64,000 bases of DNA from a virus. The position numbers were made by a program, and so were the translations under genes. Below the pieces are notes generated by a model. It worked only from the letters and a program-made list of their open reading frames with translations. It did no database searches and was not told the origin of the DNA. Positions 40,470 to 60,116 of this stretch are shown here, piece by piece; position 1 is the stretch's first letter; every line of letters begins with the position of its first letter. Where the stretch lies: the IMG/VR virus record IMGVR_UViG_3300028840_004184, positions 32,001 through 96,000 of that record; one strand, 5' to 3'.

Positions 40470-40472
40470 TGC

Positions 40473-40679
40473 TCAAACGCCGCAGGGCTTCTGCGGTCTC
40501 CTTTTTTCTTTCCCTCTACGTGGGCATTTATCTGCTTTTACCAGTTTGTAGCAGAATGGCATATTTTCTGTGCCACGGTAAATTCCCCCACGAGATATGC
40601 CATATTTACAGTGACATTTTTTATGCCAGGGGCATGCTGGTACCCTATATTCGCATTTTCTTATTCTTATATTACTCAC
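40473..40679 (-). CDS. Cys-rich hypothetical protein
   Basis: coupled overlap with 40676. Confidence 0.45.
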   Translation of the reverse strand: MSNIRIRKCEYRVPACPWHKKCHCKYGISRGGIYRGTENMPFCYKLVKADKCPRRGKEKRRPQKPCGV

Positions 40680-41155
40680 TTTTGTAAGTCACTCCACTGT
40701 AGTAAGTTAATCGGTACTTTGTACGCAGGTTTGTTGCCTGCCGTGAACCATTTGACCAGTTCGCATCTTGCTGCTATCACTTTACATTGTCTAACCCCTA
40801 TTAAGGTAAACTTAGGTACGTTTTCTTTCCATCCGTTTACCATAAGAATTTGGGCCTTTTTACGTATGCATGTATGAAGCTTACCCTCCTTAAGATGAAA
40901 ATGGGTTGGGCACATTGGATTAGCATACTGAATTTCCACCAAGCCAAGTTTTTCTATTTCGTAGTCTGGGTCTGTGGTGACGTTTTTATTGTTTCTGATA
41001 AATCTGCCGCTATTGTCTGACCCTTTGTCCCAATATTTTAGGTCGGTTTTGCCAATTGTTTTAAGCCAGCATTTCAGTATAGTCACCTGATCTCGGGTGC
41101 TCCGCTTAATGTCTTTTCTAAACTCCTCTTCGGTCCTTCTATCAAATCTACTCAT
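40676..41155 (-). CDS. hypothetical protein, possible PD-(D/E)xK nuclease
   Basis: DPDY...LVEIQ. Confidence 0.45.
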   Translation of the reverse strand: MSRFDRRTEEEFRKDIKRSTRDQVTILKCWLKTIGKTDLKYWDKGSDNSGRFIRNNKNVTTDPDYEIEKLGLVEIQYANPMCPTHFHLKEGKLHTCIRKKAQILMVNGWKENVPKFTLIGVRQCKVIAARCELVKWFTAGNKPAYKVPINLLQWSDLQK

Positions 41156-41251
41156 ATTATACCTTCTTTTCCTGTAAAGTCAAGGAAGTTTTGCCCAGAA
41201 TTTTTAAGTCCTGGGCAAATACTGTTCTACCTTACGAGATTTTAACCGAAC

Positions 41252-41752
41252 TTATTCGTCGAAAAATGGAGATGATTCATTATTTCCCACATGTTCGTTC
41301 GCTATAAGTGGAGAATCTTGGGTCGCGGTTACAACATCAACTCCCTGTTCCTCTTGAGTTTCGGCCAATACGGGGGTGTCGGCCTGGGGCTGGACAAGAT
41401 CCTGTATGTGTGATAGATTAAGATTTACTTTGTTCCCTCCGAGTGCCTCAACCTTGTTGTTAAGATTAGTGAAAGTCTCGAAGGTTTTTTTGGGATCATC
41501 AATGCTTGTCACATCCCGAAGTGCCTGTTTAGCATCTTGAACTGCTTTGCTTAGTTTGTTCATTTTTTCAAGGATGATCACGATATTTTTCCGCTGTTGT
41601 GTAGCCTTTTTTAATTCGGCTGGAGACTTGTGTTTTTGCTCAATGCTTTCAATTAGGGCCACAGCACGGGGGTCGTTCTTTTCCCAACCAGCAGCTTCAA
41701 TAACTCGCTTGGCTCGATCGAGGTCGATTACTCGTTTGGTTCTTCGCTTCAT
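41252..41752 (-). CDS. hypothetical coiled-coil protein
   Basis: AGGAG RBS. Confidence 0.6.
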   Translation of the reverse strand: MKRRTKRVIDLDRAKRVIEAAGWEKNDPRAVALIESIEQKHKSPAELKKATQQRKNIVIILEKMNKLSKAVQDAKQALRDVTSIDDPKKTFETFTNLNNKVEALGGNKVNLNLSHIQDLVQPQADTPVLAETQEEQGVDVVTATQDSPLIANEHVGNNESSPFFDE

Positions 41753-41765
41753 GTGTAGTTACTCC

Positions 41766-42737
41766 TTAAGTAAAATAGTTTGTAAATTTATTAGACCAAT
41801 AACTGATTATATTATGTATAAATGTTATATTGCTGTGTTGTGATGGTATCACTTGAATCGGTGCTGTTTTTAATACCGACCTTTTAATAAGTGGTCCCAT
41901 CTCATCCCAAAAATGTGATAGTGCCCTTTTCACAACGGAGTTTTTCGTATATTTACTCATTTTGAATTTAGCTACCTTCCATAATTCTTTTTGTTGATAG
42001 GCAGATAATTCAAAGATCTTAGATGGGAAAAATTGTTCCGTTTCTGGTGGGATTATAATGCTTTGTCTTATAGCATGTTTTAGCAACCTTGTCCATACCT
42101 TTGGTTCTCGCGTTTTTTTTGTTGGTAATGAAGGTGTCAAGAACGCCTTTCTGTGTTGGGTAAATCTGTAAAATTCTGTCGTACTTATTTTAGTTTCGTT
42201 TTCATCTATTCCCACTTGGCAAAAATTCCAGTCGAAACCTTGTAGAATTTTTAATGGATCATTTATGTTATCCACATTCATAAATATAAGTTGTATTTTT
42301 TTGTCCCATTTTGTGTCTATGTATTGATACTCAAATATAGCAGCAATGTTATGTTTTGATGATTTGAAGTGCTTGAGTTTGAGAGCCTGTTTCTTGGTTT
42401 GCCCGATAGCTTTAAAGTTTCCTTTAGGGTTTACAAGTTTGTCTATTACATTATCCGTGATATTATTACTAAGGGGCACGAATACATCAACATCACCATA
42501 ATTATTTGTGTATCCTTCCGCAAACAATCCAGCACCACCGGCTATTAAGAATGGATGACCGTGCTGTATACGGGTATCAATAAAACCCATAACCCTGTTA
42601 AATACAGTGTTCCTGTCATAAGACGATATATTCTGTGTAGGTTCGATAATAACATGTCCTGATGGCGGATCACATACATCACACACCCAGTTTACAAGAA
42701 GCTGAGTCATTTTGTTATTACATTTGGGACATTTCAT
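41766..42737 (-). CDS. nucleotidyltransferase-like protein with N-terminal zinc ribbon
   Basis: IAGGA...GDVDVF, IQLIF, FDWNFCQVG (Pol-beta / CCA-enzyme head-type motifs). Confidence 0.7.
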   Translation of the reverse strand: MKCPKCNNKMTQLLVNWVCDVCDPPSGHVIIEPTQNISSYDRNTVFNRVMGFIDTRIQHGHPFLIAGGAGLFAEGYTNNYGDVDVFVPLSNNITDNVIDKLVNPKGNFKAIGQTKKQALKLKHFKSSKHNIAAIFEYQYIDTKWDKKIQLIFMNVDNINDPLKILQGFDWNFCQVGIDENETKISTTEFYRFTQHRKAFLTPSLPTKKTREPKVWTRLLKHAIRQSIIIPPETEQFFPSKIFELSAYQQKELWKVAKFKMSKYTKNSVVKRALSHFWDEMGPLIKRSVLKTAPIQVIPSQHSNITFIHNIISYWSNKFTNYFT

Positions 42738-42943
42738 TCGCTTAATCGCCGCGAAGGCTTACTCCATTTATTAAGTCTTTCAAGACATTCTACACAGTCT
42801 GGTTTTCTATATTTATAACCCCATGGCATTATTACTACGTGTTCACATAATGTATGTACGTTATCTATTTCATTACTGGGTTTTTGGTTGTTTTTTGTGG
42901 CACAAAACCCGTTACTATGTTCGACGCACCATACTTTTTTCAT
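42734..42943 (-). CDS. small Cys-rich hypothetical protein
   Basis: coupled overlaps on both sides. Confidence 0.5.
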   Translation of the reverse strand: MKKVWCVEHSNGFCATKNNQKPSNEIDNVHTLCEHVVIMPWGYKYRKPDCVECLERLNKWSKPSRRLSE

Positions 42944-43317
42944 TGTAATTTCTTTTTCTTATATGGTATAACATAACCACTACTATGTATTGCGAGTAAG
43001 TCACCCGTCTTTATAGGACCAGAAGCAGACACTTGGAATGTTGCTCCTCTTGCTGTGCCGCCAGTCATCATCACGAGCACCGTGTGGTCTTCTGGGTCAG
43101 GAGCAGACACTGCAATACCAATAGGTATCTGTTTATCATCGGCATATTCCCACCCGTTCCATTGATCGTCTTGTGGGAAAACACACTCATCTTCGGTTGA
43201 TGGCTCTTTGTTGTTAGCAGTCTTTTTCTTTTTAGTATTGTCAGACGGATTACAGTTTTCGCAAACCCAGGATGTTAATAACTGTATCATGGGCTTTTTA
43301 CATTTGGGACAATTCAA
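42940..43317 (-). CDS. hypothetical protein with N-terminal zinc ribbon
   Basis: CPKC..M.QLLTSWVCENC shared with 42737 and 52276. Confidence 0.55.
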   Translation of the reverse strand: MNCPKCKKPMIQLLTSWVCENCNPSDNTKKKKTANNKEPSTEDECVFPQDDQWNGWEYADDKQIPIGIAVSAPDPEDHTVLVMMTGGTARGATFQVSASGPIKTGDLLAIHSSGYVIPYKKKKLQ

Positions 43318-43320
43318 CCT

Positions 43321-45888: not shown

Positions 45889-45922
45889 TAGAATGTTCCT
45901 TTTTTTATTTTTTCCTTGACTT

Positions 45923-45951
45923 ATTCTATCCCATAAAGTATACTTTGTCAA
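45923..45951 (-). promoter_or_regulatory. sigma70-type promoter for leftward block
   Basis: TTGACA-17-TAGAAT on minus strand. Confidence 0.65.
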
Positions 45952-47620: not shown

Positions 47621-47621
47621 T

Positions 47622-50106: not shown

Positions 50107-50179
50107 AGCGGGGAGGATGGGTATCCCGGCAGGGCTCATATCCCTGTTCTTGCAGGCTCGACTCCTGCCCCCGCTACCA
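50107..50179 (+). tRNA. tRNA-Met(CAT), initiator-like
   Basis: AGCGGGG/CCCCGCT acceptor, GGG/CCC anticodon stem, CTCATAT loop, encoded CCA; short D-arm. Confidence 0.8.
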
Positions 50180-50240
50180 TAAATATTTTCTCCTTAGGGA
50201 GTTGTGTTCTCTGCCTATGGCAGATAATCTAAAAAGGTTT

Positions 50241-50274
50241 CCGCTGAACCCGCCTGGCGAATCAGCGGTTTTTT
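50241..50274 (+). terminator. intrinsic terminator between the two CAT tRNAs
   Basis: CCGCTGA...TCAGCGG followed by T6. Confidence 0.6.
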
Positions 50275-50278
50275 ATTT

Positions 50279-50355
50279 GGACCCGTAGCTCAGTTGGTGA
50301 GAGCACTCGCCTCATAAGCGATAGGTCCTTGGTTCAAGTCCAAGCGGGTCCACCA
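50279..50355 (+). tRNA. tRNA(CAT), probably Ile2 (lysidine type) or elongator Met
   Basis: canonical cloverleaf, GGACCCG acceptor, CTCATAA loop, CCA. Confidence 0.9.
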
Positions 50356-50444
50356 CCTCAAACGGCAATAGCCTTAGTTTTACATTGGAGTATGAATTAA
50401 TGCATTTACCAGTTGGATAAGACTTATTAAGGACATAAAACATA

Positions 50445-50660
50445 ATGAGTGAAGAACTAATACGCAAGATAGAGGAAGAGTGGGATCAGCCGCAACCAAT
50501 GCAGTGCCCGGATTGTGGAAATTTTGTCATGGTTTCTCCAGAAGATTTGCTGGTACCAGTTGAGGATTTGTGTGAATGCTGCTTCAGATATAATGAAGAA
50601 TGTATCAGAGAACACGAAACTATGCACAGCGACCGACTATTCGACGATGATTTATGGTAA
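50445..50660 (+). CDS. small acidic zinc-finger protein
   Basis: CPDC...CECC; AAGGA RBS. Confidence 0.55.
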   Translation: MSEELIRKIEEEWDQPQPMQCPDCGNFVMVSPEDLLVPVEDLCECCFRYNEECIREHETMHSDRLFDDDLW

Positions 50661-50678
50661 TTTTTTCGAAAAAATAAC

Positions 50679-50707
50679 TTGACTTTTCGTAAGGTTTAGA
50701 GTATTAT
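50679..50707 (+). promoter_or_regulatory. sigma70-type promoter of tRNA array leader
   Basis: TTGACT-17-TATTAT with A-rich UP region. Confidence 0.7.
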
Positions 50708-50830
50708 ATATATACACGGGGTTATTCCCGATCTTACTATAGTTTGTGGGATTGTGACAGTTTGACTCAATTCCACTAAATAGTAGAACACGCATATAGC
50801 GTAGTTATTTCATAGGTTATGGAGAATAAA

Positions 50831-50911
50831 ATGTTTCTCGCAGAGCGACCATCTAGTTTGTCACATTTATGGACACCGGCATACGGCATCGAAGGAGCCG
50901 ATACGGGATAG
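50831..50911 (+). CDS. putative attenuator leader peptide MFLAERPSSLSHLWTPAYGIEGADTG
   Basis: GGAG RBS 6 nt upstream; stop codon directly adjoins antiterminator strand. Confidence 0.65.
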   Translation: MFLAERPSSLSHLWTPAYGIEGADTG

Positions 50912-50985
50912 CTGAGGGTCTGCTTATAACACATTTTTTAACACAATATACAGACCCTCAGGAGAAAAACTTCTGAGGGTTTTTT
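50912..50985 (+). terminator. mutually exclusive antiterminator (50912-50922 / 50951-50961) and terminator (50954-50980 + T-run)
   Basis: CTGAGGGTCTG/CAGACCCTCAG versus ACCCTCAGGAG/CTTCTGAGGGT-TTTTT. Confidence 0.85.
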
Positions 50986-51063
50986 AATGTTCAGTCGCCG
51001 AAGGGCTCACAAAAAAGTAGCTTTAAGATTAGCCGAATGGATTCAAGATATTTATAAATAAGT

Positions 51064-51137
51064 GCGTGGATGGTGTAGTGATAGCATCTGTGATTCCAAC
51101 TCATAGGGCCAGGGTTTGATTCCTTGTCTGCGTGCCA
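51064..51137 (+). tRNA. tRNA-Trp(CCA)
   Basis: cloverleaf, loop TTCCAAC, G73, CCA; G-U-rich acceptor. Confidence 0.8.
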
Positions 51138-51161
51138 ATTTTTATTGAGATATTTTATAAC

Positions 51162-51238
51162 GGGGGTGTAGTTCAGGTAGTTAGAACGCCAGCCTGTCAC
51201 GTTGGAGGTCGAGGGTGCGATGCCCTTCATCCCCGCCA
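51162..51238 (+). tRNA. tRNA-Asp(GTC)
   Basis: cloverleaf, CTGTCAC loop, G73, CCA. Confidence 0.92.
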
Positions 51239-51284
51239 CTTATTTCTTTGTTATGGAGGAATGAGCCTTAAATGAACGATATAT

Positions 51285-51359
51285 GGGCGAATAGTGTTAA
51301 CGGGAGCATACTAGATTTGCACTCTAGGGGTTGGGGTTCAACTCCCCATTTGTCCACCA
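51285..51359 (+). tRNA. tRNA-Ala(TGC)
   Basis: cloverleaf, G3:U70, CCA. Confidence 0.92.
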
Positions 51360-51446
51360 ACACTCAGTCGCCGTGGGGCTTTGATAAAAAATATTGCTCT
51401 TAGGCGAAAAAATAGATTGACAAATAAGAAAGATGTAGTATGATTA

Positions 51447-51522
51447 CTAGGGTTAACTCAGTTTGGTAGAGTACTGGCCTTGGACGCCAGGAGCGTAGGT
51501 TCAAATCCTACACCTTAGACCA
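51447..51522 (+). tRNA. tRNA-Pro(TGG)
   Basis: cloverleaf, C1:G72, CCA. Confidence 0.92.
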
Positions 51523-51527
51523 AAATT

Positions 51528-51640
51528 ATTCTTCCTTGCTGGGTCGTCTAATATGGTAGGACGCCAGTGACTCCTGTGGGGCGGAGCCTGCTCCGTAAAC
51601 TGGAAATGGTGGTTCGATTCCACCACCGTCATGGAGGAAT
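51528..51640 (+). ncRNA. tRNA-like RNA with expanded anticodon domain, no CCA
   Basis: D-arm GTCT-AATATGGTA-GGAC, CCAGT/ACTGG stem, T-arm GGTGG-TTCGATT-CCACC. Confidence 0.6.
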
Positions 51641-51677
51641 CTTTTAAGCTTAAGTTATATTGTATTGGATTTGTGTT

Positions 51678-52199
51678 ATGATATATTTAAGTGAAAAGCA
51701 ACGAAAAAACAAACGCATTATATTAGAGGAAATCAAACCTGTTGATTGTCAGGTGTGTTTTTTCCATGACGTATCTCATTTGCCGTTTAGTGGTTATCCT
51801 ATGCGTTCGAGTTATTATGATGAAATTAATAAGATAGCTTTCGTGTATACGGCTGAAGCGACCAACCGTCATATTTTGTATTCGTTACTACATGAGGTAT
51901 GTCATCACATTACATGGGACAAGAGATGGGATAGGCGTAAGTTTAGACGAGATGAATGGGGGGAGTGGAGACCTAGCCATCCTACATATTATTTGCGAGA
52001 ATATAAAGCAGAGAAGTTATTGCGAAAAATATGTAGACGATATGGATGGCATGAATTACTACAAGAGTCGGATATGTTATTAACAAAACATTTATTAAAT
52101 AAAACAAAAGATACTGAAAGACAATATACATATTCTTGTAAACGTATAGTAAGAGAAGAAAAACGAGACATAGCTCAGATGGTTAGAGCGTTCGGCTGA
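51678..52199 (+). CDS. HExxH metallopeptidase-like protein
   Basis: SLLHEVCHH...E..A; 3' end overlaps tRNA-Ile. Confidence 0.6.
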   Translation: MIYLSEKQRKNKRIILEEIKPVDCQVCFFHDVSHLPFSGYPMRSSYYDEINKIAFVYTAEATNRHILYSLLHEVCHHITWDKRWDRRKFRRDEWGEWRPSHPTYYLREYKAEKLLRKICRRYGWHELLQESDMLLTKHLLNKTKDTERQYTYSCKRIVREEKRDIAQMVRAFG

Positions 52200-52240
52200 T
52201 AACCGAAAGGGCGTAGGTTCAATTCCTACTGTCTCGACCA
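52164..52240 (+). tRNA. tRNA-Ile(GAT)
   Basis: canonical cloverleaf, CCA. Confidence 0.93.
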
Positions 52241-52275
52241 ACACTCAAGCGGCGTGGGCCTTATGGAGAAAATAG

Positions 52276-53055
52276 ATGATAAGAAAGTGTGATAAATGCG
52301 GATCTAACCTTGTTGAGTTGATTACATCGTGGGTTTGCCCTAACAGTTGCAACAAGGTGGACACCCCCTTGAAATCCCCCGGTGACTGGGGATCCGAAAT
52401 AGAACGTGACACCTTCTACCAGGACTTGCTTAAGGAGCAATGCAAAAACTGCGTCAACGAAGGAGATCATGATAATTGTTGTGGCAACGCTTGTGATGAA
52501 ATACCGTGTCCTGGATTTGAGAAAATGCCTGTAAAGAAGTCTATTACAGAACAGTCAATGATGCAACCAGTAGATATAACACAAAGCGGTTGTTTGAGTG
52601 GGCTAAAGAAGCCGCAGACAAAAATGTCATTAAAACAAGATCTCCATAAGCGGCAAGAAGATAAGTCCGCGTCGCTCTGTTCGATGGGTGTTTGGCGATG
52701 TGGATGTGGTAAGTTTCCTATACTCAAAAGCGAACCGGATGAAGAGGGAGATTTATTTTGGTTTTCATGTTGTGATATAGTTTCTTTTAATACGTCAGAT
52801 CTTAAATTGGCAGTTTTGCGATGGAATAATCTCCTTAAGCAGAAGGAGGGGTGGGAAAGACTAGGTGAAGTAGATCACATCGAAATAAACGATGGAAATA
52901 AAATTGTTATACATACTAAAAAGAACAATTTTCATATGAATGAGGATCAAATAATAAGTGATATGTCGGAAAAAGATTGTCCAAATAGTATAAAAAACAT
53001 ATTTCTTTATTATCAACAAAAGCATAATATATATAGATTTGAAATTATACCATGA
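52276..53055 (+). CDS. Cys-rich hypothetical protein with N-terminal zinc ribbon
   Basis: GGAG RBS; CDKC...LITSWVC. Confidence 0.6.
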   Translation: MIRKCDKCGSNLVELITSWVCPNSCNKVDTPLKSPGDWGSEIERDTFYQDLLKEQCKNCVNEGDHDNCCGNACDEIPCPGFEKMPVKKSITEQSMMQPVDITQSGCLSGLKKPQTKMSLKQDLHKRQEDKSASLCSMGVWRCGCGKFPILKSEPDEEGDLFWFSCCDIVSFNTSDLKLAVLRWNNLLKQKEGWERLGEVDHIEINDGNKIVIHTKKNNFHMNEDQIISDMSEKDCPNSIKNIFLYYQQKHNIYRFEIIP

Positions 53056-53141
53056 GTCGAACATATAAAGATACTAAAAGGCGTAGAGATGAAGCAGACG
53101 CACAGAAACAGATAAACGAATATAATCCCGAGCGGGAATAA

Positions 53142-53414
53142 TTGCTGCTTTGCAGCACTAAAATGTTAAATATTTACCGAGCGGTAATATCTAGTTGTTT
53201 TTATTATCATAAACACAAATGTATTATATGTGATGAGATTAATATAGTGGCCGTGCATCATTTTGATTTTAATAATAAAAATAATGAACCGGATAATTTA
53301 ATACCAATGTGCCCAACGCATCATCAATATATGCATAGTAGATTTAGGGAACTAATAGATAAAAAAGTTATTGAATATAGGCAGAGCTTCTTAAAGAAAT
53401 TTCGGAGCACATAA
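53142..53414 (+). CDS. HNH domain protein (possibly truncated)
   Basis: CIIC...VHHFD.N..NN...NL..MCPTHH. Confidence 0.65.
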   Translation: MLLCSTKMLNIYRAVISSCFYYHKHKCIICDEINIVAVHHFDFNNKNNEPDNLIPMCPTHHQYMHSRFRELIDKKVIEYRQSFLKKFRST

Positions 53415-53417
53415 AAA

Positions 53418-53639
53418 ATGGGAATGTATGATGAAATCAAGGTGCCTTGTCCTGAATGTGGTACAATTCATCTTGCCCAATCTAAGGGCGGCGATTGTAC
53501 ACTGGCACTTTATACGTTAAACGAAGCACCGACAGACGTATTACTTGATGTAAACAGACATGGTCCATTCCAATGTGAAAGGTGCTGTACAAGATTTGCT
53601 GTTAAAATACATTGTGTAGCTCAGGTTGTAAAAGAATAA
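53418..53639 (+). CDS. small zinc-ribbon protein
   Basis: MGMYD...CPECG...QSK. Confidence 0.6.
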   Translation: MGMYDEIKVPCPECGTIHLAQSKGGDCTLALYTLNEAPTDVLLDVNRHGPFQCERCCTRFAVKIHCVAQVVKE

Positions 53640-53656
53640 TTTGCGTAGCAATAGCA

Positions 53657-53730
53657 GGACATATCGTATAATGGTATTATGTGTGGCTTACATCCACAAG
53701 ACGGTGGTTCGATTCCATCTATGTCCACCA
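53657..53730 (+). tRNA. tRNA-Val(TAC)
   Basis: cloverleaf, CTTACAT loop, CCA. Confidence 0.88.
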
Positions 53731-53767
53731 ATGCTCAATCGCCGCAAGGCTTGTTAAGGATATTATT

Positions 53768-53944
53768 ATGAAAACAAAATTAAAAATTGTGATTGAATAT
53801 GAAGCAGATCCCGAGGATTATGATACCGAAGATCCAAAGAAAATGGCTGAAATTGATGAGAGTAATTTTAGAGAAGACCCACCATCTTTGATGGAAATGT
53901 TATGTGATTTAGAAGATATTAAAGTTAAAGTGGAGCCAGCATAG
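53768..53944 (+). CDS. small acidic hypothetical protein
   Basis: AAGGA RBS before ATG 53768. Confidence 0.5.
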   Translation: MKTKLKIVIEYEADPEDYDTEDPKKMAEIDESNFREDPPSLMEMLCDLEDIKVKVEPA

Positions 53945-53946
53945 TC

Positions 53947-54405
53947 ATGCAAACTTTTCTCCCGTACCGCGACTTTGAAAAATCGGCTAAATGTCTCGAT
54001 TATCGTCGGCTCGGTAAACAAAGAGTTGAGGCAAAACAGATCCTTAATGTTCTCCTGGGAAGGACAAATAAAAAGGGTTGGCGTAATCATCCATGCGTGA
54101 CAATGTGGCGTGATTATGAACTTGCTTTACAAGAATATTATAATATGATTCTGAAAGAATGGATAAGGCGTGGATATAAAAATAATATGGAATTTGAGTA
54201 TACTTCATATTATAAACATGGTATACTGAGGGTATATCAAGAACCATATACTAATCCTTATTATTGTAAGCCAGAATGGCTCAATAAGACATTCTGTGCC
54301 TCTCATCGTTCTAATCTGCTCCGTAAAGATCCTGAGTGGTATGGACGATTTGAGTGGGAAGAACCAAATAATTTACCGTACATTTGGCCCATTCAGTCAG
54401 CGTGA
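53947..54405 (+). CDS. pyrimidine-dimer DNA glycosylase-like protein (MSMEG_6728 family)
   Basis: MQTFLPY..F..SA..LD..RLGKQRVEA.QI, NHP...MW, SHRSNLLRKDP..Y. Confidence 0.85.
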   Translation: MQTFLPYRDFEKSAKCLDYRRLGKQRVEAKQILNVLLGRTNKKGWRNHPCVTMWRDYELALQEYYNMILKEWIRRGYKNNMEFEYTSYYKHGILRVYQEPYTNPYYCKPEWLNKTFCASHRSNLLRKDPEWYGRFEWEEPNNLPYIWPIQSA

Positions 54406-54430
54406 GCCTTTTTTGTTTATGGAGTAAAAT

Positions 54431-54625
54431 ATGATTGATCCCCAAATTAAAGAATGGATCGACGGTGCTAATATTGAAATGTTGTTGAGGAAATGGAGGT
54501 TCGCAAGGTCTGGTGATCCATATTTCCAAGGAGAAGCCGGAAAGTATTATTCTGAAGTTATGGCCAAGAAACGAAATGAAGACCCGGCGGCTTATACTCG
54601 GGCTAGCAAGAATATTGGATGGTAA
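54431..54625 (+). CDS. hypothetical protein
   Basis: GGAG RBS. Confidence 0.6.
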   Translation: MIDPQIKEWIDGANIEMLLRKWRFARSGDPYFQGEAGKYYSEVMAKKRNEDPAAYTRASKNIGW

Positions 54626-54649
54626 TAAGTTATTTTTGGAGACAATGAA

Positions 54650-55114
54650 ATGAAAACTACGGCTATAGTAACCCTGGCGATATTTATGTTCATAATAGGA
54701 TACGGAGCCTTACATTGTATTATGATAGAACGGGTGAAAGATAATGCAGTTGAAGACTATCGTAGATCGGCGGGTATGATAAGTTTTGATGATGAAGGTC
54801 CTAAGAAAACGGCATGTAAATGGGGCTGGGATATGGAGGCTGATCTTATCGAGACTCCTCATGGTAATCACAAGTTGATACTTAATGCAACTATTACCAA
54901 AGAACCCTGTGGAGAGCCCACGTTCACATTTTTTGTCTTTTTCTTTGGTTCTGATAATCAGATACTAGGGACTAGGAAAATTGTACGTCCTTGTGATAGT
55001 CCTGTGCAGTTATGGATTCCACGAAACACAGCGTATATACTAGTTTGCGGTGAGGGTAAATGTGGTAAATGCGGAAGCGAAGTGTTGAATGCGGCATTGT
55101 TGGAAATAGAATAA
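54650..55114 (+). CDS. membrane-anchored beta-rich protein
   Basis: N-terminal TM, Cys pairs. Confidence 0.55.
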   Translation: MKTTAIVTLAIFMFIIGYGALHCIMIERVKDNAVEDYRRSAGMISFDDEGPKKTACKWGWDMEADLIETPHGNHKLILNATITKEPCGEPTFTFFVFFFGSDNQILGTRKIVRPCDSPVQLWIPRNTAYILVCGEGKCGKCGSEVLNAALLEIE

Positions 55115-55120
55115 TCAAGA

Positions 55121-55197
55121 GTTGACCATGGTGTAGATAGTTAACATATCGGATTGTGACTCCGGGGTCAGCGGGGCGGAACCGCTTGGTCAACCCA
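55121..55197 (+). tRNA. tRNA-His(GTG)
   Basis: G-1:C73, TTGTGAC loop, CCA; aberrant T-loop GGCGGAA. Confidence 0.88.
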
Positions 55198-55236
55198 CAT
55201 AACTTCGTTATGAAGAAAGTCGTAGTTTAAAAATTG

Positions 55237-55329
55237 GGAGGGTTGTCGGAGCGGTCAATCGAGGCGGATTTGAAATCCGTTGGTCAGTTTAAAGCTGGCA
55301 CGGGGGTTCGAATCCCTCACCCTCCTCCA
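55237..55329 (+). tRNA. tRNA-Ser(TGA)
   Basis: long variable arm, TTTGAAA loop, CCA. Confidence 0.92.
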
Positions 55330-55342
55330 AACTTTAAATAAA

Positions 55343-55433
55343 AGTCCATGGCGAAGTGGCAGACGTGTTATTTCATGGTGGGCGTCGGGAGCCGTTAACC
55401 GATAGCTGTTGGTTCGAATCCAGCCCATGGACT
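55343..55433 (+). ncRNA. tRNA-like RNA with expanded anticodon domain, no CCA
   Basis: AGTCCATGG/CCATGGACT closing stem, D-loop-like AAGTGGCAGA, T-arm GTTGG-TTCGAAT-CCAGC. Confidence 0.6.
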
Positions 55434-55456
55434 GTTTTTAAAATGGATAACTTCCC

Positions 55457-55756
55457 ATGGATGATAAAATAAAAATACTAAGATGGTGGAATAAAAATGA
55501 AGCCGAAGTAATAAAAGAATACCATATTGCTGTACGGGTTACAAGAACTAAATCTGGTAAACGACATAGGTATGATGTATGTGCTCAAGACGATGATCCG
55601 AACTTAGCGGGGTGGAATTTTATTAGTATATATCTTCCTCACGATCAGGATGAAGAGGCGAAAAAGAAAGCTATTGAAAAAATTAAAGGCATGGTTCGGT
55701 GTGGTTCTCCTGACATACATATGATAAGAAATGATATCGAGGAACATAAATCATGA
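55457..55756 (+). CDS. hypothetical protein
   Basis: 99-aa ORF between RNA genes. Confidence 0.5.
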   Translation: MDDKIKILRWWNKNEAEVIKEYHIAVRVTRTKSGKRHRYDVCAQDDDPNLAGWNFISIYLPHDQDEEAKKKAIEKIKGMVRCGSPDIHMIRNDIEEHKS

Positions 55757-55962
55757 AACCCAGCAAAAAATCTGAAGGTATTGAGGATTTCCTAGATCGT
55801 TTTGGCGAAGTCGCATACGGAAGAGGCCGTATAGAATCAATTGAAAATGATATCTGTATAAAATGTGGTCAACCAGCCAAAGTTTTTCGCGACGATCTTT
55901 CCCGTAGGGAATATACGATTTCTGGTCTTTGCCAAAAGTGTCAGGATAAGATATTTAAGTAG
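55753..55962 (+). CDS. small zinc-finger protein
   Basis: CIKC...EY.ISGLCQKCQD..F. Confidence 0.65.
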   Translation: MKPSKKSEGIEDFLDRFGEVAYGRGRIESIENDICIKCGQPAKVFRDDLSRREYTISGLCQKCQDKIFK

Positions 55963-56048
55963 GGGTGGCGGAATAATAGACGCAGCCCGATTATGGGTGG
56001 CTATTTTGATCAAATAGTGTGTAGGTGTGAATCCTACCCTCTACACCA
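55959..56048 (+). tRNA. aberrant Leu-like tRNA with truncated anticodon arm
   Basis: GTAGGGG/CCTCTAC acceptor, A73-CCA, long variable arm; anticodon arm only GCCC-GATTAT-GGGT. Confidence 0.6.
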
Positions 56049-56082
56049 AAACTTAGACGCCGTTAGGCTTTGAAATAGAGAC

Positions 56083-56167
56083 GGGCGGGTACCCAAGCGG
56101 CAAAGGGGTGTGGCTGTAGACCACATGGCTAACGCCTACGTTGGTTCGAGTCCAACTCCGCCCACCA
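56083..56167 (+). tRNA. tRNA-Tyr(GTA)
   Basis: cloverleaf with variable arm, CCA. Confidence 0.93.
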
Positions 56168-56180
56168 ACATAACTTCGTT

Positions 56181-56390
56181 ATGGAGAAAGAAAAAATGCG
56201 ACTAAGTGAGTTGATTAATGTATTACTAGAAGTACAGAGAGATTGTAAAAATGATCCCGATTATCCTGATGATCCCCCCGTAGAGATTTGTCAAGCAATT
56301 AGTACAAATATAGGATCGGTAGAGAGATCAAGATATTATAATCACAGGACGGACGGAAAAGATCCAATTGTTATGATACATGAAGCATGA
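56181..56390 (+). CDS. hypothetical protein
   Basis: small ORF; true start may be the second ATG after GGAG. Confidence 0.5.
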   Translation: MEKEKMRLSELINVLLEVQRDCKNDPDYPDDPPVEICQAISTNIGSVERSRYYNHRTDGKDPIVMIHEA

Positions 56391-56407
56391 AGGTCGATAA
56401 ACATAGT

Positions 56408-56493
56408 GGCTCCGTGGGGGAAATTAGCAGACCCGTATCGCTTAAGACGATATGCCCTAGGGCGTTCCAGTGCAAGTCTGGACGGAGCTACCA
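56408..56493 (+). tRNA. tRNA-Leu(TAA)
   Basis: CTTAAGA loop, variable arm, CCA. Confidence 0.9.
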
Positions 56494-56534
56494 AAACATA
56501 AATACCGCTACAGACTTTTGCGGAGCATATACTA

Positions 56535-57155
56535 ATGGGAATGTCACGATCAGAAGCTGGTAAGCTTGGTGCTAAGAAAGTTAATCCGGCACAAAGACAA
56601 AGAGCGATAAACAAATACTACAAAAGTCCATCTATTTGTAAATATTGTGGTAAAGTTATACGAATCAAAAATAAGGAAAAAGCATCTTATGTTAAAAGAA
56701 AGAAATTTTGTAATAGATCATGTTTAATGAGATACATAAACGCGTTACATGTTCGGCAAAGCGATAAACGAAATTGTTTACAATGCGACAAGGTAATACC
56801 AGCGAGACAGAAATACTGCTCTTTGAAATGTCAGCAATTATATAAAAAAATAAAAAGATTCAACGATATAGACGAAAGACAAGATGCTGATGGGTATGGT
56901 AATAAAACTATTAAGTCATATTTGTTATATAAATATGGTTATAAATGCTCTATATGTAATAATACTGTGTGGATGGACAAACAAATCCCCTTAGTTATGG
57001 ACCACGTAGATGGTAATCCATACAATAATAAGATCAATAACTTAAGGCTGGTCTGTGGTAACTGTGATATGCAGTTACCAACGTATAAGTCAAAAAATAG
57101 AGGAAGTGGTCGTCATTATAGACGACTAAGATATAAACAAGACAAAAGCTATTAG
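56535..57155 (+). CDS. HNH homing endonuclease
   Basis: KFCN..C zinc motifs, CSIC...DHVDGN..NN...NL.LVC.NC. Confidence 0.85.
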   Translation: MGMSRSEAGKLGAKKVNPAQRQRAINKYYKSPSICKYCGKVIRIKNKEKASYVKRKKFCNRSCLMRYINALHVRQSDKRNCLQCDKVIPARQKYCSLKCQQLYKKIKRFNDIDERQDADGYGNKTIKSYLLYKYGYKCSICNNTVWMDKQIPLVMDHVDGNPYNNKINNLRLVCGNCDMQLPTYKSKNRGSGRHYRRLRYKQDKSY

Positions 57156-57228
57156 CCTGCATAGTTTAATGGTAAAACCTCGGTTTTGTAATCCGAATTT
57201 CGGCGTTCGATTCGTCGTGCAGGCTCCA
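57155..57228 (+). tRNA. tRNA-Thr(TGT)
   Basis: cloverleaf, CCA. Confidence 0.9.
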
Positions 57229-57258
57229 TGTATTTTTCTTTGTTATGGAGGTGTTAAA

Positions 57259-57465
57259 ATGGTTAACTTCAGTAACGTAAGGGATGTCGGCAGAATTCTT
57301 GCTCTTAGAGAGAGAGCATACCGCAGGTCTAATCGTGAAAAATCATTACAGCCTCGTCATAGCAAACATTGGTGTCCGTCTTGTGACGGAGCTATAATTG
57401 GTGCTGGTAGCAAATGTCCTAGATGTGGAAAGCGTATTTCGCCGAGACGGCTGAAAAAGGAATAA
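57259..57465 (+). CDS. small zinc-ribbon protein
   Basis: GGAGG RBS; WCPSCD...KCPRCG. Confidence 0.6.
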   Translation: MVNFSNVRDVGRILALRERAYRRSNREKSLQPRHSKHWCPSCDGAIIGAGSKCPRCGKRISPRRLKKE

Positions 57466-57488
57466 TGCTACGCAGGCTAAAATTTTAC

Positions 57489-57579
57489 GGAAGGGTGGCC
57501 GAGTTGGCTTATGGCACCGTCCTGCTAAGGCGGAGGGGTATAATAGCCCCCGCAAGTTCGAATCTTGTCCCTTCCTCCA
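57489..57579 (+). tRNA. tRNA-Ser(GCT)
   Basis: long variable arm, CTGCTAA loop, CCA. Confidence 0.92.
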
Positions 57580-57608
57580 TGCTCAATCGCCGCAAGGCTT
57601 ACAGTTGA

Positions 57609-57790
57609 TCTTTGAATATTTATAAGCAAGAGGACTAGGGGCGAGAATCCGTATAATTCAATTCTTAGCCAGGACGTTCGGAGCATGTAAAATGCAGCAC
57701 CGCCTAGTATGAGTTTGCGGATACATATACAGCAACTCTGGTGATAGTTGCTCTGTGAAATCTAACAGAAAAGGCCGTAATATTCAAAGA
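57609..57790 (+). ncRNA. unclassified ~180-nt pseudoknotted structured RNA
   Basis: 12-bp closing stem TCTTTGAATATT/AATATTCAAAGA plus five internal helices and a long pseudoknot; no ORF. Confidence 0.6.
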
Positions 57791-57822
57791 CTTGATTAAT
57801 TTTAACTAAGGAGCAATTTATC

Positions 57823-58209
57823 ATGTTTAACTTTCTAATTTATCTGTTGATTACATTTAGTTCTTTTATAATGCAAGATCCTGGGCCTGGTCCGCAGGTT
57901 TGTGTACTGGAGGGGTGTATTGATCTTGTCACTGTTGATTATGGTGATGGACTATACGGCCTTGAAGTCTATTCAAGGGGTAGTTCCAGCTTGAATCACG
58001 GGGTCTCTATGGAGATTTATTGGTATGTTTTTGACATGTTCGGGAAACTTGTGGGGCTTGGTCGTGATCTTATTCCGTATTGGTATGACGAGAGAGAATT
58101 AATCCCTTTGGTGGCTGGTCAACACGTATATATCGAACTAAGAGTGATTTGTTGGAAATGTAAGATCGATACGTGGGCTTATGCGGATACTAAGATACCT
58201 CCATTTTAA
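57823..58209 (+). CDS. exported beta-rich protein
   Basis: AAGGAG RBS, signal-like N-terminus. Confidence 0.55.
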   Translation: MFNFLIYLLITFSSFIMQDPGPGPQVCVLEGCIDLVTVDYGDGLYGLEVYSRGSSSLNHGVSMEIYWYVFDMFGKLVGLGRDLIPYWYDERELIPLVAGQHVYIELRVICWKCKIDTWAYADTKIPPF

Positions 58210-58274
58210 ACTCAGGTGGCGTTGGCCTTATATTGTATTGTTTTAAAGGCACAAAAAATTGTGCGTAGCACAAT

Positions 58275-58361
58275 GGCATCCTGGCGAAATGGCAGACGCG
58301 GTAGGTTCAAAACCTGCTACCACGTAGTGGTGTCCCGGTTCAAGTCCGGGGGGTGCCACCA
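58275..58361 (+). tRNA. tRNA-Leu(CAA)
   Basis: TTCAAAA loop, variable arm, CCA. Confidence 0.92.
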
Positions 58362-58399
58362 TATTCAGTTGCCGCAGGGCTTAGAAAAGGAAAGATAAC

Positions 58400-58555
58400 A
58401 TGAGTGAAGATGAAATAGTCGAATGTCCCGAGTGTGGTTTTCAGCAGCTAGATCCTGGTAAAGGAGTTGCTTGTGAAGAATGCGGACATTATCCCCTTGT
58501 TTCTCTTAAGGAGATCGAGAAGCAGGACAAAGAGTGGAGAAAAGGCAATGGCTAG
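58400..58555 (+). CDS. small zinc-ribbon protein (below ORF-track cutoff)
   Basis: MSEDEIVECPECG...CEECG; AAGGA RBS. Confidence 0.55.
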   Translation: MSEDEIVECPECGFQQLDPGKGVACEECGHYPLVSLKEIEKQDKEWRKGNG

Positions 58556-58745
58556 ATGTAATTATTGCAATTTTGTAAGTATTAGAGAAGAGCATAAGAA
58601 TAGTGATAAGACGGTGACTTTAACACCAGACAATCACGTATATGTACACCCTAAAGAGATTATTATTGCTGATTTGTCAAAGGAGGAAAGGGAAAAATAC
58701 TTTGTGGCCTGGTTTATGGAGTTGCCTAATTATTGTTGTTGCTAA
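58548..58745 (+). CDS. hypothetical protein
   Basis: GGAG RBS before ATG 58548. Confidence 0.55.
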   Translation: MARCNYCNFVSIREEHKNSDKTVTLTPDNHVYVHPKEIIIADLSKEEREKYFVAWFMELPNYCCC

Positions 58746-58746
58746 A

Positions 58747-58823
58747 GCGGGTGTAGTTTAGTCGAATAGAACACCTCGCTACGAACGAGGAGGTCGGGGG
58801 TTTAAGTCCTCCCACCCGCACCA
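58747..58823 (+). tRNA. tRNA-Arg(ACG)
   Basis: cloverleaf, A20, CCA. Confidence 0.9.
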
Positions 58824-58832
58824 TTGAAGCTC

Positions 58833-58930
58833 GATAAGAGATTGTCAGAGCCCGTTGTACAGGCTTGATTCGGTGGACGTGGTGACCGAATGACTATGAT
58901 ACAAGGAAGCAACCTTGCAGTTATCTTATC
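58833..58930 (+). ncRNA. unclassified ~100-nt four-way-junction RNA
   Basis: GATAAGAGATTG/CAGTTATCTTATC closing stem with three hairpins. Confidence 0.5.
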
Positions 58931-58951
58931 CATACAGCATTATTTTTATGT

Positions 58952-59036
58952 GGGAGAGTGGCGTAACTGGTAGCCGCGTATGGTTTAGGACCATATGTCG
59001 AAAGGCGTGCAGGTTCGAGTCCTGTCTCTCCTACCA
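58952..59036 (+). tRNA. tRNA-Leu(TAG)
   Basis: TTTAGGA loop, variable arm, CCA. Confidence 0.92.
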
Positions 59037-59078
59037 ACACTCATGCTTCGCTGGCGTGGGCCTTATTAGGGGTATATT

Positions 59079-59300
59079 ATGACCAGGAAAGAATTTAGTG
59101 AAGTGCTTCGTGATTTATCTCCCGTTGTTTACGATGGTATGTTGGCTGGGGGTATGTCGCTGCCTAAAATAGCACAGGCTGTTGCCCTGGACTGTTTTTT
59201 ATATAGGTCGGGAGAAGTAGACAGTATTATGCAGAGAACACTGCGTGGGTATTTACAAAACCTAGATAAGACTGGCGTCTTTGGATTTGATAAAGAATAG
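59079..59300 (+). CDS. hypothetical protein
   Basis: AGGGG RBS, fills gap between tRNAs. Confidence 0.55.
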   Translation: MTRKEFSEVLRDLSPVVYDGMLAGGMSLPKIAQAVALDCFLYRSGEVDSIMQRTLRGYLQNLDKTGVFGFDKE

Positions 59301-59301
59301 A

Positions 59302-59375
59302 GAGGCTATGGTGTAGTGGTAACACGTCAGGTTTTCAGCCTGAGGTCGAGAGTTCGATTCTCTCTAGCCTTACCA
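59302..59375 (+). tRNA. tRNA-Glu(TTC)
   Basis: cloverleaf, TTTTCAG loop, CCA. Confidence 0.9.
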
Positions 59376-59396
59376 ACTTAAGAAGAATATGATATA

Positions 59397-60011
59397 ATGA
59401 GAATTCCTGATATTTTGATAAAAGATCTTAATAGCCTAAGTCCAGGCAATCGTGTTTTGAGATTAAGGGGATTGTCGTCATATTATCGAAACCCAAGATA
59501 TTGTTTGTTTTGTAACAAAGTTATTAATGCTGTACCTGGAGTACGTCTTGCACGCACAAAGGCAAAAAAGTTTTGTAACCAAAGATGTGCTGCATTATAC
59601 AATAATAAGCGTAAGCTGTCTAATGAGTGTTTGTATTGTGGTAAATCAATATATAAGTATCGTAAATACTGTTCTCATAAGTGTGTTCAAGAGCATAAAT
59701 ATAGAACATATATCGGTAAATGGCTTAGCGGTAAAGTAAGTGGTATAAAAGGCAAGGACAGCATATCTAATTATATCAGACGTTGGTTAATTGATAAATA
59801 TAACAATCGATGCGTTAAGTGTGGATGGAGTGTAAAAAATAGATATACGAATAAAGTCCCTCTACAAATTAATCACATCGATGGTAATTGGAAAAACAAC
59901 AAGTCCGAGAATTTAGAGCTTGTATGTCCTAATTGTCATTCATTAACACCTAATTATGGTGGTAGAAATAAAGGAAAAGGACGACCATATAGGTATAAAA
60001 TGCGAGTATAA
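59397..60011 (+). CDS. HNH homing endonuclease (paralogue of 56535)
   Basis: CVKCGW...LQINHIDGN..NN..ENL.LVCPNCHS. Confidence 0.88.
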   Translation: MRIPDILIKDLNSLSPGNRVLRLRGLSSYYRNPRYCLFCNKVINAVPGVRLARTKAKKFCNQRCAALYNNKRKLSNECLYCGKSIYKYRKYCSHKCVQEHKYRTYIGKWLSGKVSGIKGKDSISNYIRRWLIDKYNNRCVKCGWSVKNRYTNKVPLQINHIDGNWKNNKSENLELVCPNCHSLTPNYGGRNKGKGRPYRYKMRV

Positions 60012-60075
60012 TTCAATGGTAGAAAGTCACCCTTCCAAGGTGGATATGCCGGTTCGAATCCGGCTACTCGCTCCA
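60002..60075 (+). tRNA. tRNA-Gly(TCC)
   Basis: GCG acceptor start, U73, CCA. Confidence 0.92.
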
Positions 60076-60116
60076 TACTGCTCAATCGCCGCAGGGCTTG
60101 CTTTTTAAGGAAGAAT

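Follow-up and report, generated by a model that had tools for sequence, protein, structure and literature searches.

Copies of the motif in the analysed window

The window is the whole analysed stretch of 64,000 nt, and the positions given below refer to it unless they are called genome positions. It includes an 11-kb tRNA array in which we found one clear terminator and just two sigma-70 promoters of good quality; because the array is so poor in both, its tRNAs and ORFs are probably excised from long transcripts. Several HNH endonuclease genes also lie within the array. A 19-base mini-hairpin with the consensus [tg]CTCA-RNY-GSC-GNNR-GSC-TT occurs in 14 copies in the window, all on the + strand.

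Nine copies start 1-9 nt past a tRNA CCA end, as had been proposed. Precisely, the copy at 50357..50375, with a swapped GGC/GCC stem, lies 1 nt past the CCA of tRNA-Met and upstream of the RBS of the ORF 50445-50660, whereas three others lie 3 nt past a CCA: 51363..51381 after tRNA-Ala, 35 nt upstream of a promoter (TTGACA-16-TATGAT at 51417); 52244..52262 (GGC/GCC stem) after tRNA-Ile, followed at once by the RBS ATGGAG and the ORF 52276-53055; and 53734..53752 after tRNA-Val, with an ATG 16 nt downstream. The copy at 56052..56070, a CTTA variant, is found a few nt past the CCA of a tRNA-like gene (~55963-56047) that was missed by ARAGORN, with tRNA-Tyr 12 nt further on. The copy at 57582..57600 is 2 nt past the CCA of tRNA-Ser and is followed by about 220 nt without a clear ORF. 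Two copies are 2 nt past a tRNA-Leu CCA: the TTCA copy at 58364..58382, upstream of an RBS and the ORF 58400-58555, and the variant at 59039..59064 (GGC/GCC stem), which precedes an RBS and the ORF starting at 59079 and whose CTCA, at 59039, stands 9 nt instead of 3 ahead of the stem at 59046. Finally, the copy at 60081..60099 is 5 nt past the CCA of tRNA-Gly, upstream of an RBS and the ORF 60117-60371.

Three further copies follow other features. The one at 50990..51008 (TTCA, ending in CTC) adjoins the 3' side of the intrinsic terminator 50952-50982, in agreement with the copy originally noted just after a terminator, and tRNA-Trp is found 55 nt on. The copy at 54392..54410 is degenerate, its outer pair being a mismatched A-C; the TGA of the ORF 53947-54405 falls in its loop and an RBS follows. 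The copy at 58211..58229 (GGC/GCC stem) lies 1 nt past the TAA of the ORF 57823-58209, and tRNA-Leu is 45 nt on.

The remaining two copies keep the + orientation inside a block of - strand genes, as originally noted, and are hence antisense to the local genes. The reverse complement of the copy at 40472..40490 encodes the C-terminal KPCGV and the stop codon of a 68-aa Cys-rich ORF, and its CTCA is 2 nt away from where the following - strand gene has its ATG; read on the + strand, this copy extends to a 7-bp hairpin followed by a T-run (z = -2.4). The copy at 42741..42760, a CTTA variant with a 5-nt loop, overlaps a - strand ORF of 69 aa at its C-terminus and is 3 nt from the next - strand ATG.

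Frequency, strand and covariation

We searched the window with the pattern YTCARNYGSCNNNNGSCTT, allowing at most one mismatch, and used dinucleotide shuffles as the null. The pattern gave 12 matches, 12 of 12 on the + strand, against 0.26 on average, and never more than 3, in the shuffles, so the motif is more frequent than expected by chance. The total of 14 originally counted stands because the copies at 42741 and 59046 are real variants.

We also ran a position-weight scan over the whole 170,410-bp genome, which returned further + strand copies at genome positions 97732, 102253, 108362, 114123 and 122520 and a lone - strand copy at genome positions 22516-22534. The claim that the motif is always on the + strand is therefore correct within the window but not genome-wide, where the tally is 19 copies on the + strand to 1 on the - strand. 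Within the 170-kb genome the copies are clustered in 50 kb.

In the alignment of the 20 copies, the middle pair of the stem is C-G in 15 and G-C in 5, with no mismatch, and covariation at the observed level was reached by none of 500 shuffles. The compensated flip of the central pair, already recognised in the window, thus holds for the full set, limited as it is to one pair of a stem of just 3 bp. In a folding test the isolated hairpin was no more stable than shuffled sequence and is thermodynamically marginal. The CTCA, the stem, the G at loop position 1 and the TT are invariant, while the spacer and the middle of the loop vary; this alternation of fixed and variable positions points to selection on shape and flanks, beyond mere recent copying. 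An Rfam search of the array and of the metagenome arrays gave, apart from tRNAs, no match near the gathering score and none overlapping any motif copy.

Placement at gene boundaries

All 20 copies in the phage are located at gene boundaries. Sixteen are in sense orientation; a tRNA CCA or stop codon precedes them by 1-9 nt and an RBS follows after 0-11 nt, and they occupy the slot between the two. The other four are antisense, with the CTCA end 2-3 nt from a start codon, and retain the full consensus even within coding sequence. Orientation tracks the genome strand more closely (19:1) than it does the local gene direction (16:4).

At the tRNA-to-ORF junctions the motif is present at 7, and an unrelated second hairpin takes the same slot at 3-4 others; only the two junctions preceding HNH endonuclease genes have neither. 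The phage copies neither overlap a -35/-10 pair nor precede one, and no -10 was found 16-18 nt past them.

Occurrence in other phages and in bacteria

Near-identical 19-mers are present in related phage-like metagenome contigs in both sense and antisense layouts. Altogether, 29 low-GC metagenome loci carry such 19-mers, in three recurring contexts. Two phage-like contigs, L141 and L165, have the order tRNA, motif, RBS, ATG as in the phage; homologues of the genes at genome positions 97769 and 102490 follow the motif in L141 and L165, with different upstream neighbours. In contig L161, the ortholog of the gene at genome position 168517 has a reverse-complemented motif between RBS and ATG, whereas the gene in the present phage has no motif, which is a presence/absence polymorphism. 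Copy 40472 and the corresponding L173 copy each specify KPCG(V/D)-stop; all synonymous sites are identical between them, although the neighbouring protein is just 60% identical. Antisense copies beside tRNA genes are seen in contig L170 and also in three bacterial loci, L244, L264 and L296.

Four bacterial MAGs carry 22, 13, 22 and 13 copies on both strands, and a reversed control pattern gave 0 matches in the same four. They are two small low-GC genomes and two Oscillospiraceae with 60% GC. When G006 and 40 relatives were searched, only 4 of these 41 genomes had the motif, a patchiness expected for a repeat expanding in some lineages. In the low-GC MAGs the motif forms tandem arrays with a spacing of ~62-72 nt (mostly ~69 nt), together with two other covarying hairpins, and the tandem units lie between housekeeping genes. 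Loop sequences are uniform inside each bacterial genome and different from genome to genome. In ~15 of 17 cases the terminal bacterial copy abuts a TTGACA- or TTGCCA-like (-35-like) hexamer downstream, two divergent intergenic regions being among them. The recurrence of the same 19-mer in a few unrelated, uncultured bacteria alters the framing, the motif being not phage-only; instead of a signal of this phage, it seems to be a member, so far undescribed, of the small dispersed hairpin repeats.

Interpretation

We consider the motif as a small dispersed hairpin repeat, similar to REPs and SDRs, that is recognised as a single strand of nucleic acid, is kept at junctions only and has probably been recruited to punctuate mRNAs; we assign to this reading a probability of about 0.4. 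The motif would be one module (A) in a so far undescribed family of dispersed hairpin repeats of very small size. From 5' to 3' it comprises the CTCA tag, a spacer of 3 nt, a G/C stem of 3 bp enclosing a G-N-N-R loop, and TT, and it would be read single-stranded, on one strand, by a putative sequence- and shape-specific factor. The family is patchy, occurring in a few bacterial genomes and in the present phage lineage, and may have spread at the DNA level. Its behaviour resembles that of REP elements and cyanobacterial SDRs, being multi-copy, extragenic or at the extreme ends of ORFs, in tandem with other hairpins, and variably present at equivalent sites. In the phage the motif would persist only at harmless sites, i.e. 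gene and tRNA boundaries. In sense orientation it was probably co-opted as an RNA punctuation hairpin, which would open each mRNA freed from the long tRNA-mRNA transcript, immediately 5' of the RBS.

Some findings argue against a repeat. No target-site duplication or clean insertion boundary could be defined, the 19-nt element is below the size of known REPs, its hairpin is only marginally stable by itself, and no mobilising enzyme was evident: in the phage there was no match to Y1 transposase (PF01797) or tyrosine recombinase (PF00589) and no GIY-YIG nuclease was found; in the bacteria, the flanks of the Y1 genes of G006 and G007 were without the motif, Y1 occurred in 17 of the 41 genomes searched regardless of motif presence, and no RAYT gene was flanked by the motif or correlated with it. 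In addition, the motif upstream of homologous genes in two relatives could mean a cis-regulatory function and not mobility. A bolder version, which we regard as unlikely, would take the 19-nt hairpin as the entire unit by which an ultra-small element, so far undescribed, is recognised. The element would be processed as single-stranded DNA, being inserted, nicked or primed on one strand of the template, and would move among small-genome (possibly CPR) bacteria, Firmicutes and large phages. Such an element would land in translation-initiation regions and gene ends, its own stem and built-in stop codon sparing the flanking genes; in fact, the reverse complement of CTCA is TGAG, hence a stop codon is carried in the motif.

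The motif could instead be a pure RNA cis element, namely a protein-bound mini-hairpin in + strand transcripts that marks the cuts of tRNA-mRNA precursors, or caps either the mRNA downstream at its new 5' end or the preceding unit at its 3' end, close to the processing or stabilising signal of the original prediction. The 16 sense copies between CCA or stop codon and RBS fit it, as do the scarcity of promoters and terminators in the array, the different hairpin in the same slot at other junctions, the shared gene order of L141 and L165, the tetraloop-like G-N-N-R loop closed by a C-G pair and the terminator-like extension of copy 40472. The four antisense phage copies and several loci in relatives, with the full consensus kept, do not; they would have to act on + strand antisense or read-through transcripts. 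Moreover, the antisense copies beside tRNA genes in L170 and in bacteria, the bacterial terminal copies that, lying just upstream of a -35-like hexamer, would escape transcription there, and the lack of an Rfam match make this reading, though possible, rather doubtful. Antisense copies kept at the nucleotide level inside an ORF and a 19:1 strand bias independent of gene direction give indirect support to the strand-polar DNA signal also proposed originally, i.e. a programmed nick site or a lagging-strand priming or loading site of the phage, with the hairpin extruded on the + strand. Several HNH endonuclease genes in the array would suit it; the third codon positions of the + strand are G-rich where genes are on the + strand and have a skew near zero, not clearly C-rich, where genes are on the - strand, which hints at an asymmetry not wholly set by gene direction. 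However, the clustering in 50 kb, the bacterial tandem arrays on both strands, which a phage nick or priming site leaves unexplained, and the fact that we identified no nickase render it improbable.

Two transcriptional roles fare worse. As a promoter or promoter-proximal element for phage-directed transcription, e.g. by the sigma factor at genome position 148619 (a Sigma70_r2 protein), the motif would be well placed past terminators, tRNAs and stop codons and just ahead of RBSs, and the hexamer abutting the bacterial terminal copies would be in keeping with this. But the gap of 0-11 nt to the RBS has no space for a -35/-10 geometry, the -10 is missing at the proper distance, the structural genes have no copy in front, and a sigma-type promoter would not be expected to show compensatory stem changes; a search for a single-subunit RNA polymerase was negative too, a weak argument as that search had no positive control. 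We hold this role as very improbable. The small hairpin with its purine-rich loop, conserved 5' flank and long operon recalls the nut/boxB-like antitermination signal put forward originally, which would load a phage protein onto RNA polymerase across the array; a 3-bp stem with a 4-nt loop instead of 5 bp with a pentaloop, no boxA, ~20 copies where one or two would suffice per operon, and the antisense and bacterial-chromosome copies make it barely credible.

Comparison with known systems

Three systems do not match. The lambda-type nut has a 5-bp stem, a GNRA-like pentaloop and an upstream boxA, with one or two per operon, and the motif departs from it by the stem, loop, boxA and copy-number differences given above, antisense copies included. 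Integron attC sites, recombined by the tyrosine recombinase IntI, are imperfect palindromes of 57-141 nt with R/L boxes; the phage has no PF00589 match, and the motif spans just 19 nt and has a stem of 3 bp without mismatch. N4-type hairpin promoters, used by a virion RNA polymerase, have a 5-7-bp stem and a 3-nt loop, so stem and loop sizes differ, and the phage gave no PF00940 match in a search without positive control.

Partial likenesses are more numerous. The nick sites of T5, phiKMV-like phages and Pseudomonas phage tf are conserved asymmetric sequences on one strand of a linear genome, and the motif, too, has an asymmetric consensus nearly restricted to one strand (19 + versus 1 -); those sites, however, are not hairpins and are not tied to gene junctions, and we know of none from host chromosomes. 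The RNase III processing hairpins found between early and late genes of T7 are intergenic, in the same orientation from stop codon to next RBS, and punctuate long transcripts; each is a long duplex of ~20 bp, imperfectly paired, whose primary sequence is not conserved. The motif shares with them its orientation and its place just past a stop codon and before the next RBS, but has a 3-bp stem, a strictly conserved sequence and some antisense copies.

The SDRs of filamentous cyanobacteria are reportedly ~21-27 nt, hairpin-forming and intergenic, and are said to be nested or in tandem with other small repeats and to show presence/absence polymorphism. To our knowledge they have no known transposase, and we know of no phage copies or strand polarity for them. 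Sequence and hosts differ, and the motif is likened to SDRs by their general description.

PeSL cassettes of T4-type phages combine a strong sigma-70 promoter with a terminator stem-loop (PMC2839356, PMC4122927). As with PeSLs, a short motif is repeated in a large phage; its copies lie among tRNAs and small ORFs, most of the latter unknown, where they may mark shuffling points of a plastic region with gene neighbourhoods that vary between relatives. Unlike PeSLs, it has no sigma-70-like -35/-10 and no terminator stem-loop (3 bp, no T-run, only copy 40472 extending terminator-like), and it is present in bacterial chromosomes too.

REP elements and REPINs, with their RAYT transposases, are short palindromic extragenic repeats with a conserved tetranucleotide beside the hairpin (PMC3116915). 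The motif is smaller (19 nt with a 3-bp stem, versus 20-40 nt for REPs) and it carries CTCA (or YTCA), set off from the stem by 3 nt, where REPs have GTAG at the 5' foot; differently from a REPtron, no cognate Y1 (RAYT) gene is flanked by it in the phage, G006 or G007, and, differently from REPINs, it has no inverted pairs, occurs in a phage and has a strong single-strand bias. As for REPs, there are many extragenic palindromic copies, 20 in the phage and 13-22 in each of the four MAGs, and the motif is, like them, multi-copy, located at gene ends, arranged in composite tandem arrays as in BIMEs and patchy among related genomes (PMC3116915).

Copies of the motif in the phage genome

The phage genome is complete (170,410 bp with direct terminal repeats, GC about 39%), with a coding fraction of about 92%. 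Its genes include a DnaE-type polymerase, a ribonucleotide reductase, an RNA ligase, a CCA-adding enzyme, an RtcB-like ligase, a large terminase, a major head protein and a Sigma70_r2 protein. In this genome we analysed a 19-nt mini-hairpin made of a CTCA tag, a 3-nt spacer, a 3-bp G/C stem, a G-N-N-R loop and a final TT. Copies are named by their start position; coordinates are those of the window, which spans bases 32001-96000 of the genome, unless marked as genome coordinates, which refer to the whole record.

The consensus of the original prediction, scanned with at most one mismatch, matched 12 sites in the window, every one of them on the + strand, where 0.26 would be expected. Adding two variants of the motif, copy 42741 with a 5-nt loop and copy 59046 with a longer spacer, brings the window to 14 copies, the number first counted. 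Scanning the whole genome with a weight matrix added + strand copies at genome 97732, 102253, 108362, 114123 and 122520. It had been claimed that the motif is always on the + strand, which is correct for all the copies in the window and not genome-wide, as one copy (genome 22516-22534) is on the - strand.

Across the 20 aligned copies there was almost no variation in the CTCA tag, the stem (all three pairs), the G that opens the loop or the closing TT, and variation fell in the spacer and the middle of the loop. The predicted compensated flip of the middle stem pair was recovered: this pair was C-G in 15 copies, G-C in 5 and mismatched in none, and its covariation was matched in 0 of 500 shuffles. 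It was the only covarying pair. The 3-bp hairpin alone folded no better than shuffled sequence; whatever reads the motif must stabilise the hairpin.

Motif positions 1-9 with the preceding base (e.g. 53733-53742), that is the 5′ half GCTCA-R-Y-Y-G, resemble a tRNA D-stem/D-loop (GCUCAGUCGG, GCUCAGUUGG), with an R where tRNA has R15 and a G where it has G18. This likeness may be either chance or a trace of origin; a tRNA model matched neither the motif nor the metagenome arrays.

Sense copies and the tRNA array

All the 20 phage copies were located at gene boundaries, 16 of them in sense orientation relative to the local genes. In the sense copies the CTCA end was 1-9 nt past a tRNA CCA, or 1-2 nt past (or over) a stop codon, and the TT end was 0-11 nt ahead of an RBS, usually (T)ATGGAG. 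ARAGORN called 19 tRNA genes at 50107-60075, every one on the + strand, in an array with two good sigma-70-like promoters (50679 and 51417) and one clear terminator (50952), and thus long tRNA-mRNA transcripts are likely across it. At tRNA-to-ORF junctions the slot between the CCA and the RBS held the motif in seven cases and a different hairpin (ATAACTTCGTTAT and a variant) in three or four, and the only junctions devoid of either hairpin were those before two HNH endonuclease genes. The hairpins in these slots, together with the scarcity of promoters and terminators, support a role of the sense copies as a co-opted RNA element.

The second element occupies the slot after tRNA-His, Tyr, Asp and Thr, as (C)ATAACTTCGTTATGRAG and its variant TTTCTTTGTTATGGAGG, at 55198-55216 and 56168-56186, with variants at 51239-51262 and 57229-57254; most bacterial tandem units carry its CTTCG core as well, within the loop of their third hairpin. 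HNH genes standing on their own, plus one further endonuclease-like gene, were found at 56535-57155, 59397-60011, 53142-53414, genome 76454-76951 and genome 22537 onward. About 220 nt with no clear ORF (57601-57822) separate the motif after tRNA-Ser from the ORF at 57823 and could contain a promoter or a small RNA. Rfam gave additional tRNA-like matches in the phage that were not called by ARAGORN. Uncalled tRNA-like genes with a T-arm and CCA-like ends, some of which may carry insertions, were seen at about 51540-51632, 55335-55432 and 55963-56047, where Rfam gave a weak tRNA match only (55372-55432). Base-pairing between CUC and the GAG of the RBS was discarded as a general feature, being predicted at one copy and no better than in shuffles.

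Antisense copies and strand

The four antisense copies were 40472, 42741, genome 122520 and the reversed copy at genome 22534, which abuts the start of an endonuclease-like ORF. In all of them the CTCA end was 2-3 nt from the ATG of the opposite-strand neighbour gene. In three the reverse complement formed the last codons of the upstream ORF, and in two of these three the stop codon as well (KPCGV-stop and EPHGN-stop).

The same layout (RBS, 0-12 nt, reverse-complemented motif, 1-4 nt, ATG) was present in four related metagenome contigs, L133, L173, L152 and L161. L173 carries an orthologue (60% identity) of the 159-aa gene beside copy 40472, and there the small downstream ORF ends in KPCGD-stop, with every synonymous site showing the same base as at copy 40472. 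From this comparison of sequences we infer that the antisense motif is constrained as nucleic acid on that strand. L161 carries an orthologue of the gene at genome 168517 with the reverse-complemented motif between RBS and ATG, whereas the studied phage has a plain 5-nt spacer and no motif in that place, which represents a presence/absence polymorphism.

According to a crude gene map, + strand blocks extend over genome 0-69.6, 78-119.5 and 148-170 kb and - strand blocks over genome 69.6-78 and 119.5-148 kb. The Sigma70_r2 gene (about 206 aa, genome 148619-148795, outside the window) lies at the start of the + strand block carrying the terminase and head genes, and may encode a late sigma factor. 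Taken in + strand coordinates, the GC skew at third codon positions was +0.1 to +0.4 for + strand genes and -0.06 to +0.08 for the - strand genes of the two large - blocks; being near zero, the latter are not a mirror image of the former. A reading of replication direction from this skew was rejected because no clear switch point was seen along the genome, and the lone reversed copy therefore stays without explanation.

Occurrence outside the phage

The phage GenBank collection contained no close DNA relative, the best DnaE protein match having about 34% identity, and homologues of the RNA ligase and of a 452-aa protein were found on short contigs only. Close relatives, as judged by TerL, were 56-64% identical in that protein. 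Motif scans of IMG/VR gave nothing apart from one chance match inside a coding region. The motif was absent from all five distant relatives scanned (G001-G005), which were reached through TerL (43-48% identity, GC 49%); the few pattern matches checked in G001 and G002 were inside tRNA genes. These last two 169-kb relatives (loci L086-L103) have many ORFs beginning 3-8 nt past a tRNA CCA (CCA-AACA-ATG) with no RBS, many sigma-70-like promoters with a palindromic spacer (TTGAC, hairpin, TATAAT), resembling the promoter-early stem-loops (PeSLs) of T4-type phages, and both have tRNAs with a CUA anticodon.

A metagenome scan with the strict 19-mer pattern gave, among the matches listed, 29 loci with GC <40%, in three contexts. 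In phage-like contigs (L141, L165, L131) the motif follows a tRNA or a stop codon ahead of an RBS, and other loci have the antisense arrangement of RBS, reverse-complemented motif and ATG. The third context consists of tandem arrays with a period of about 62-72 nt, mostly about 69 nt (L140:3460-4110, L121:370-535, L125:8750-8960, L164:3357-3500 and L253:3415-3490), located between housekeeping genes, e.g. gltX, ftsZ, recG and aroC, of small low-GC bacterial genomes. Each unit joins the motif to two further hairpins, one covarying and terminator-like and the other, the third hairpin, usually with CTTCG in its loop. Unit sequences recur from array to array with compensatory changes. Type III toxin-antitoxin RNA and CRISPR arrays were rejected for these units, as the 'spacers' recur and fold and at many loci the arrays have housekeeping genes on both sides.

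A scan of species-representative genomes gave four bacterial genomes (MAGs) rich in the motif, with 22, 13, 22 and 13 copies on both strands and 0 matches to a reversed control pattern. Two of them, small, low in GC and mutually related, are labelled Patescibacteria and Limisphaerales, the latter of which may be a binning error; the remaining two are Oscillospiraceae of about 60% GC, in which the motif is embedded in composite GC-rich repeats that often lie at contig ends. Within 41 genomes of 0.7-1.6 Mb (the bacterial genome G006 and 40 relatives) only four had the motif. Its loops were uniform inside each bacterial genome and different from genome to genome. Arrays usually ended at a -35-like hexamer: in the low-GC MAGs, about 15 of 17 last array copies were immediately next to a hexamer resembling TTGACA or TTGCCA, two of them in divergent intergenic regions. 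Antisense copies beside tRNA genes were present at loci L244, L264, L296 and L170.

Interpretation

The best-fitting reading of the motif, tentatively and with a probability of about 0.4, is that of a small dispersed repeat, hairpin-forming and of the REP/SDR kind. The element would be recognised on one strand and would spread, or be homogenised, at the DNA level; selection would filter its copies down to junctions, where they could gain a function comparable to that of REPs at mRNA ends. This reading is weakest on the side of the enzyme: searches of the phage for a Y1 transposase, an integrase and a GIY-YIG nuclease found none. Bacterial Y1 genes were neither flanked by the motif nor correlated with its presence, and on these two grounds a link to RAYTs, the transposases of REP elements, was rejected.

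It is rather unlikely that the motif is purely an RNA element, a signal that would account for most sense copies but not for the conservation of the antisense ones, for copies lying upstream of bacterial promoters or for the mixed orientation beside tRNAs. A phage nick or priming site would explain the strand bias but not the bacterial arrays, and we hold it improbable. Still less credit was given to a promoter: the spacing fits neither a sigma-70 promoter after the phage copies nor a MotA-box-like reading of GCTT, and a T7-like RNA polymerase was not found in the phage by a search that had no positive control. The boxB/nut-like antitermination hairpin of the original prediction is scarcely credible, as the motif fails the defining features of nut sites.

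If the motif is indeed a REP/SDR-like repeat, one hairpin of 19 bases would connect repeat arrays in the chromosomes of very different bacteria with a large phage lineage, and would count as one of the smallest known dispersed repeats; we know of no earlier one that phages and bacterial chromosomes share in nearly identical sequence. Used as an oligonucleotide bait, it would offer a concrete handle on the protein reading it, and in uncultured groups it could serve as a marker of phage-host or element exchange. It would also provide a natural test of how a hairpin between RBS and start codon is tolerated, and would bear on the separation of tRNA and messenger RNA in phages with large tRNA arrays.

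Comparison with known families

No Rfam family matched the motif, and a literature search found no report of its sequence. REPs are defined by a GTAG tag and a cognate RAYT and PeSLs by a promoter and a terminator, and the motif is without either pair; like nut sites, attC sites and N4 hairpin promoters have defining features that it lacks. In behaviour, the elements closest to the motif are REPs and the cyanobacterial SDR elements.
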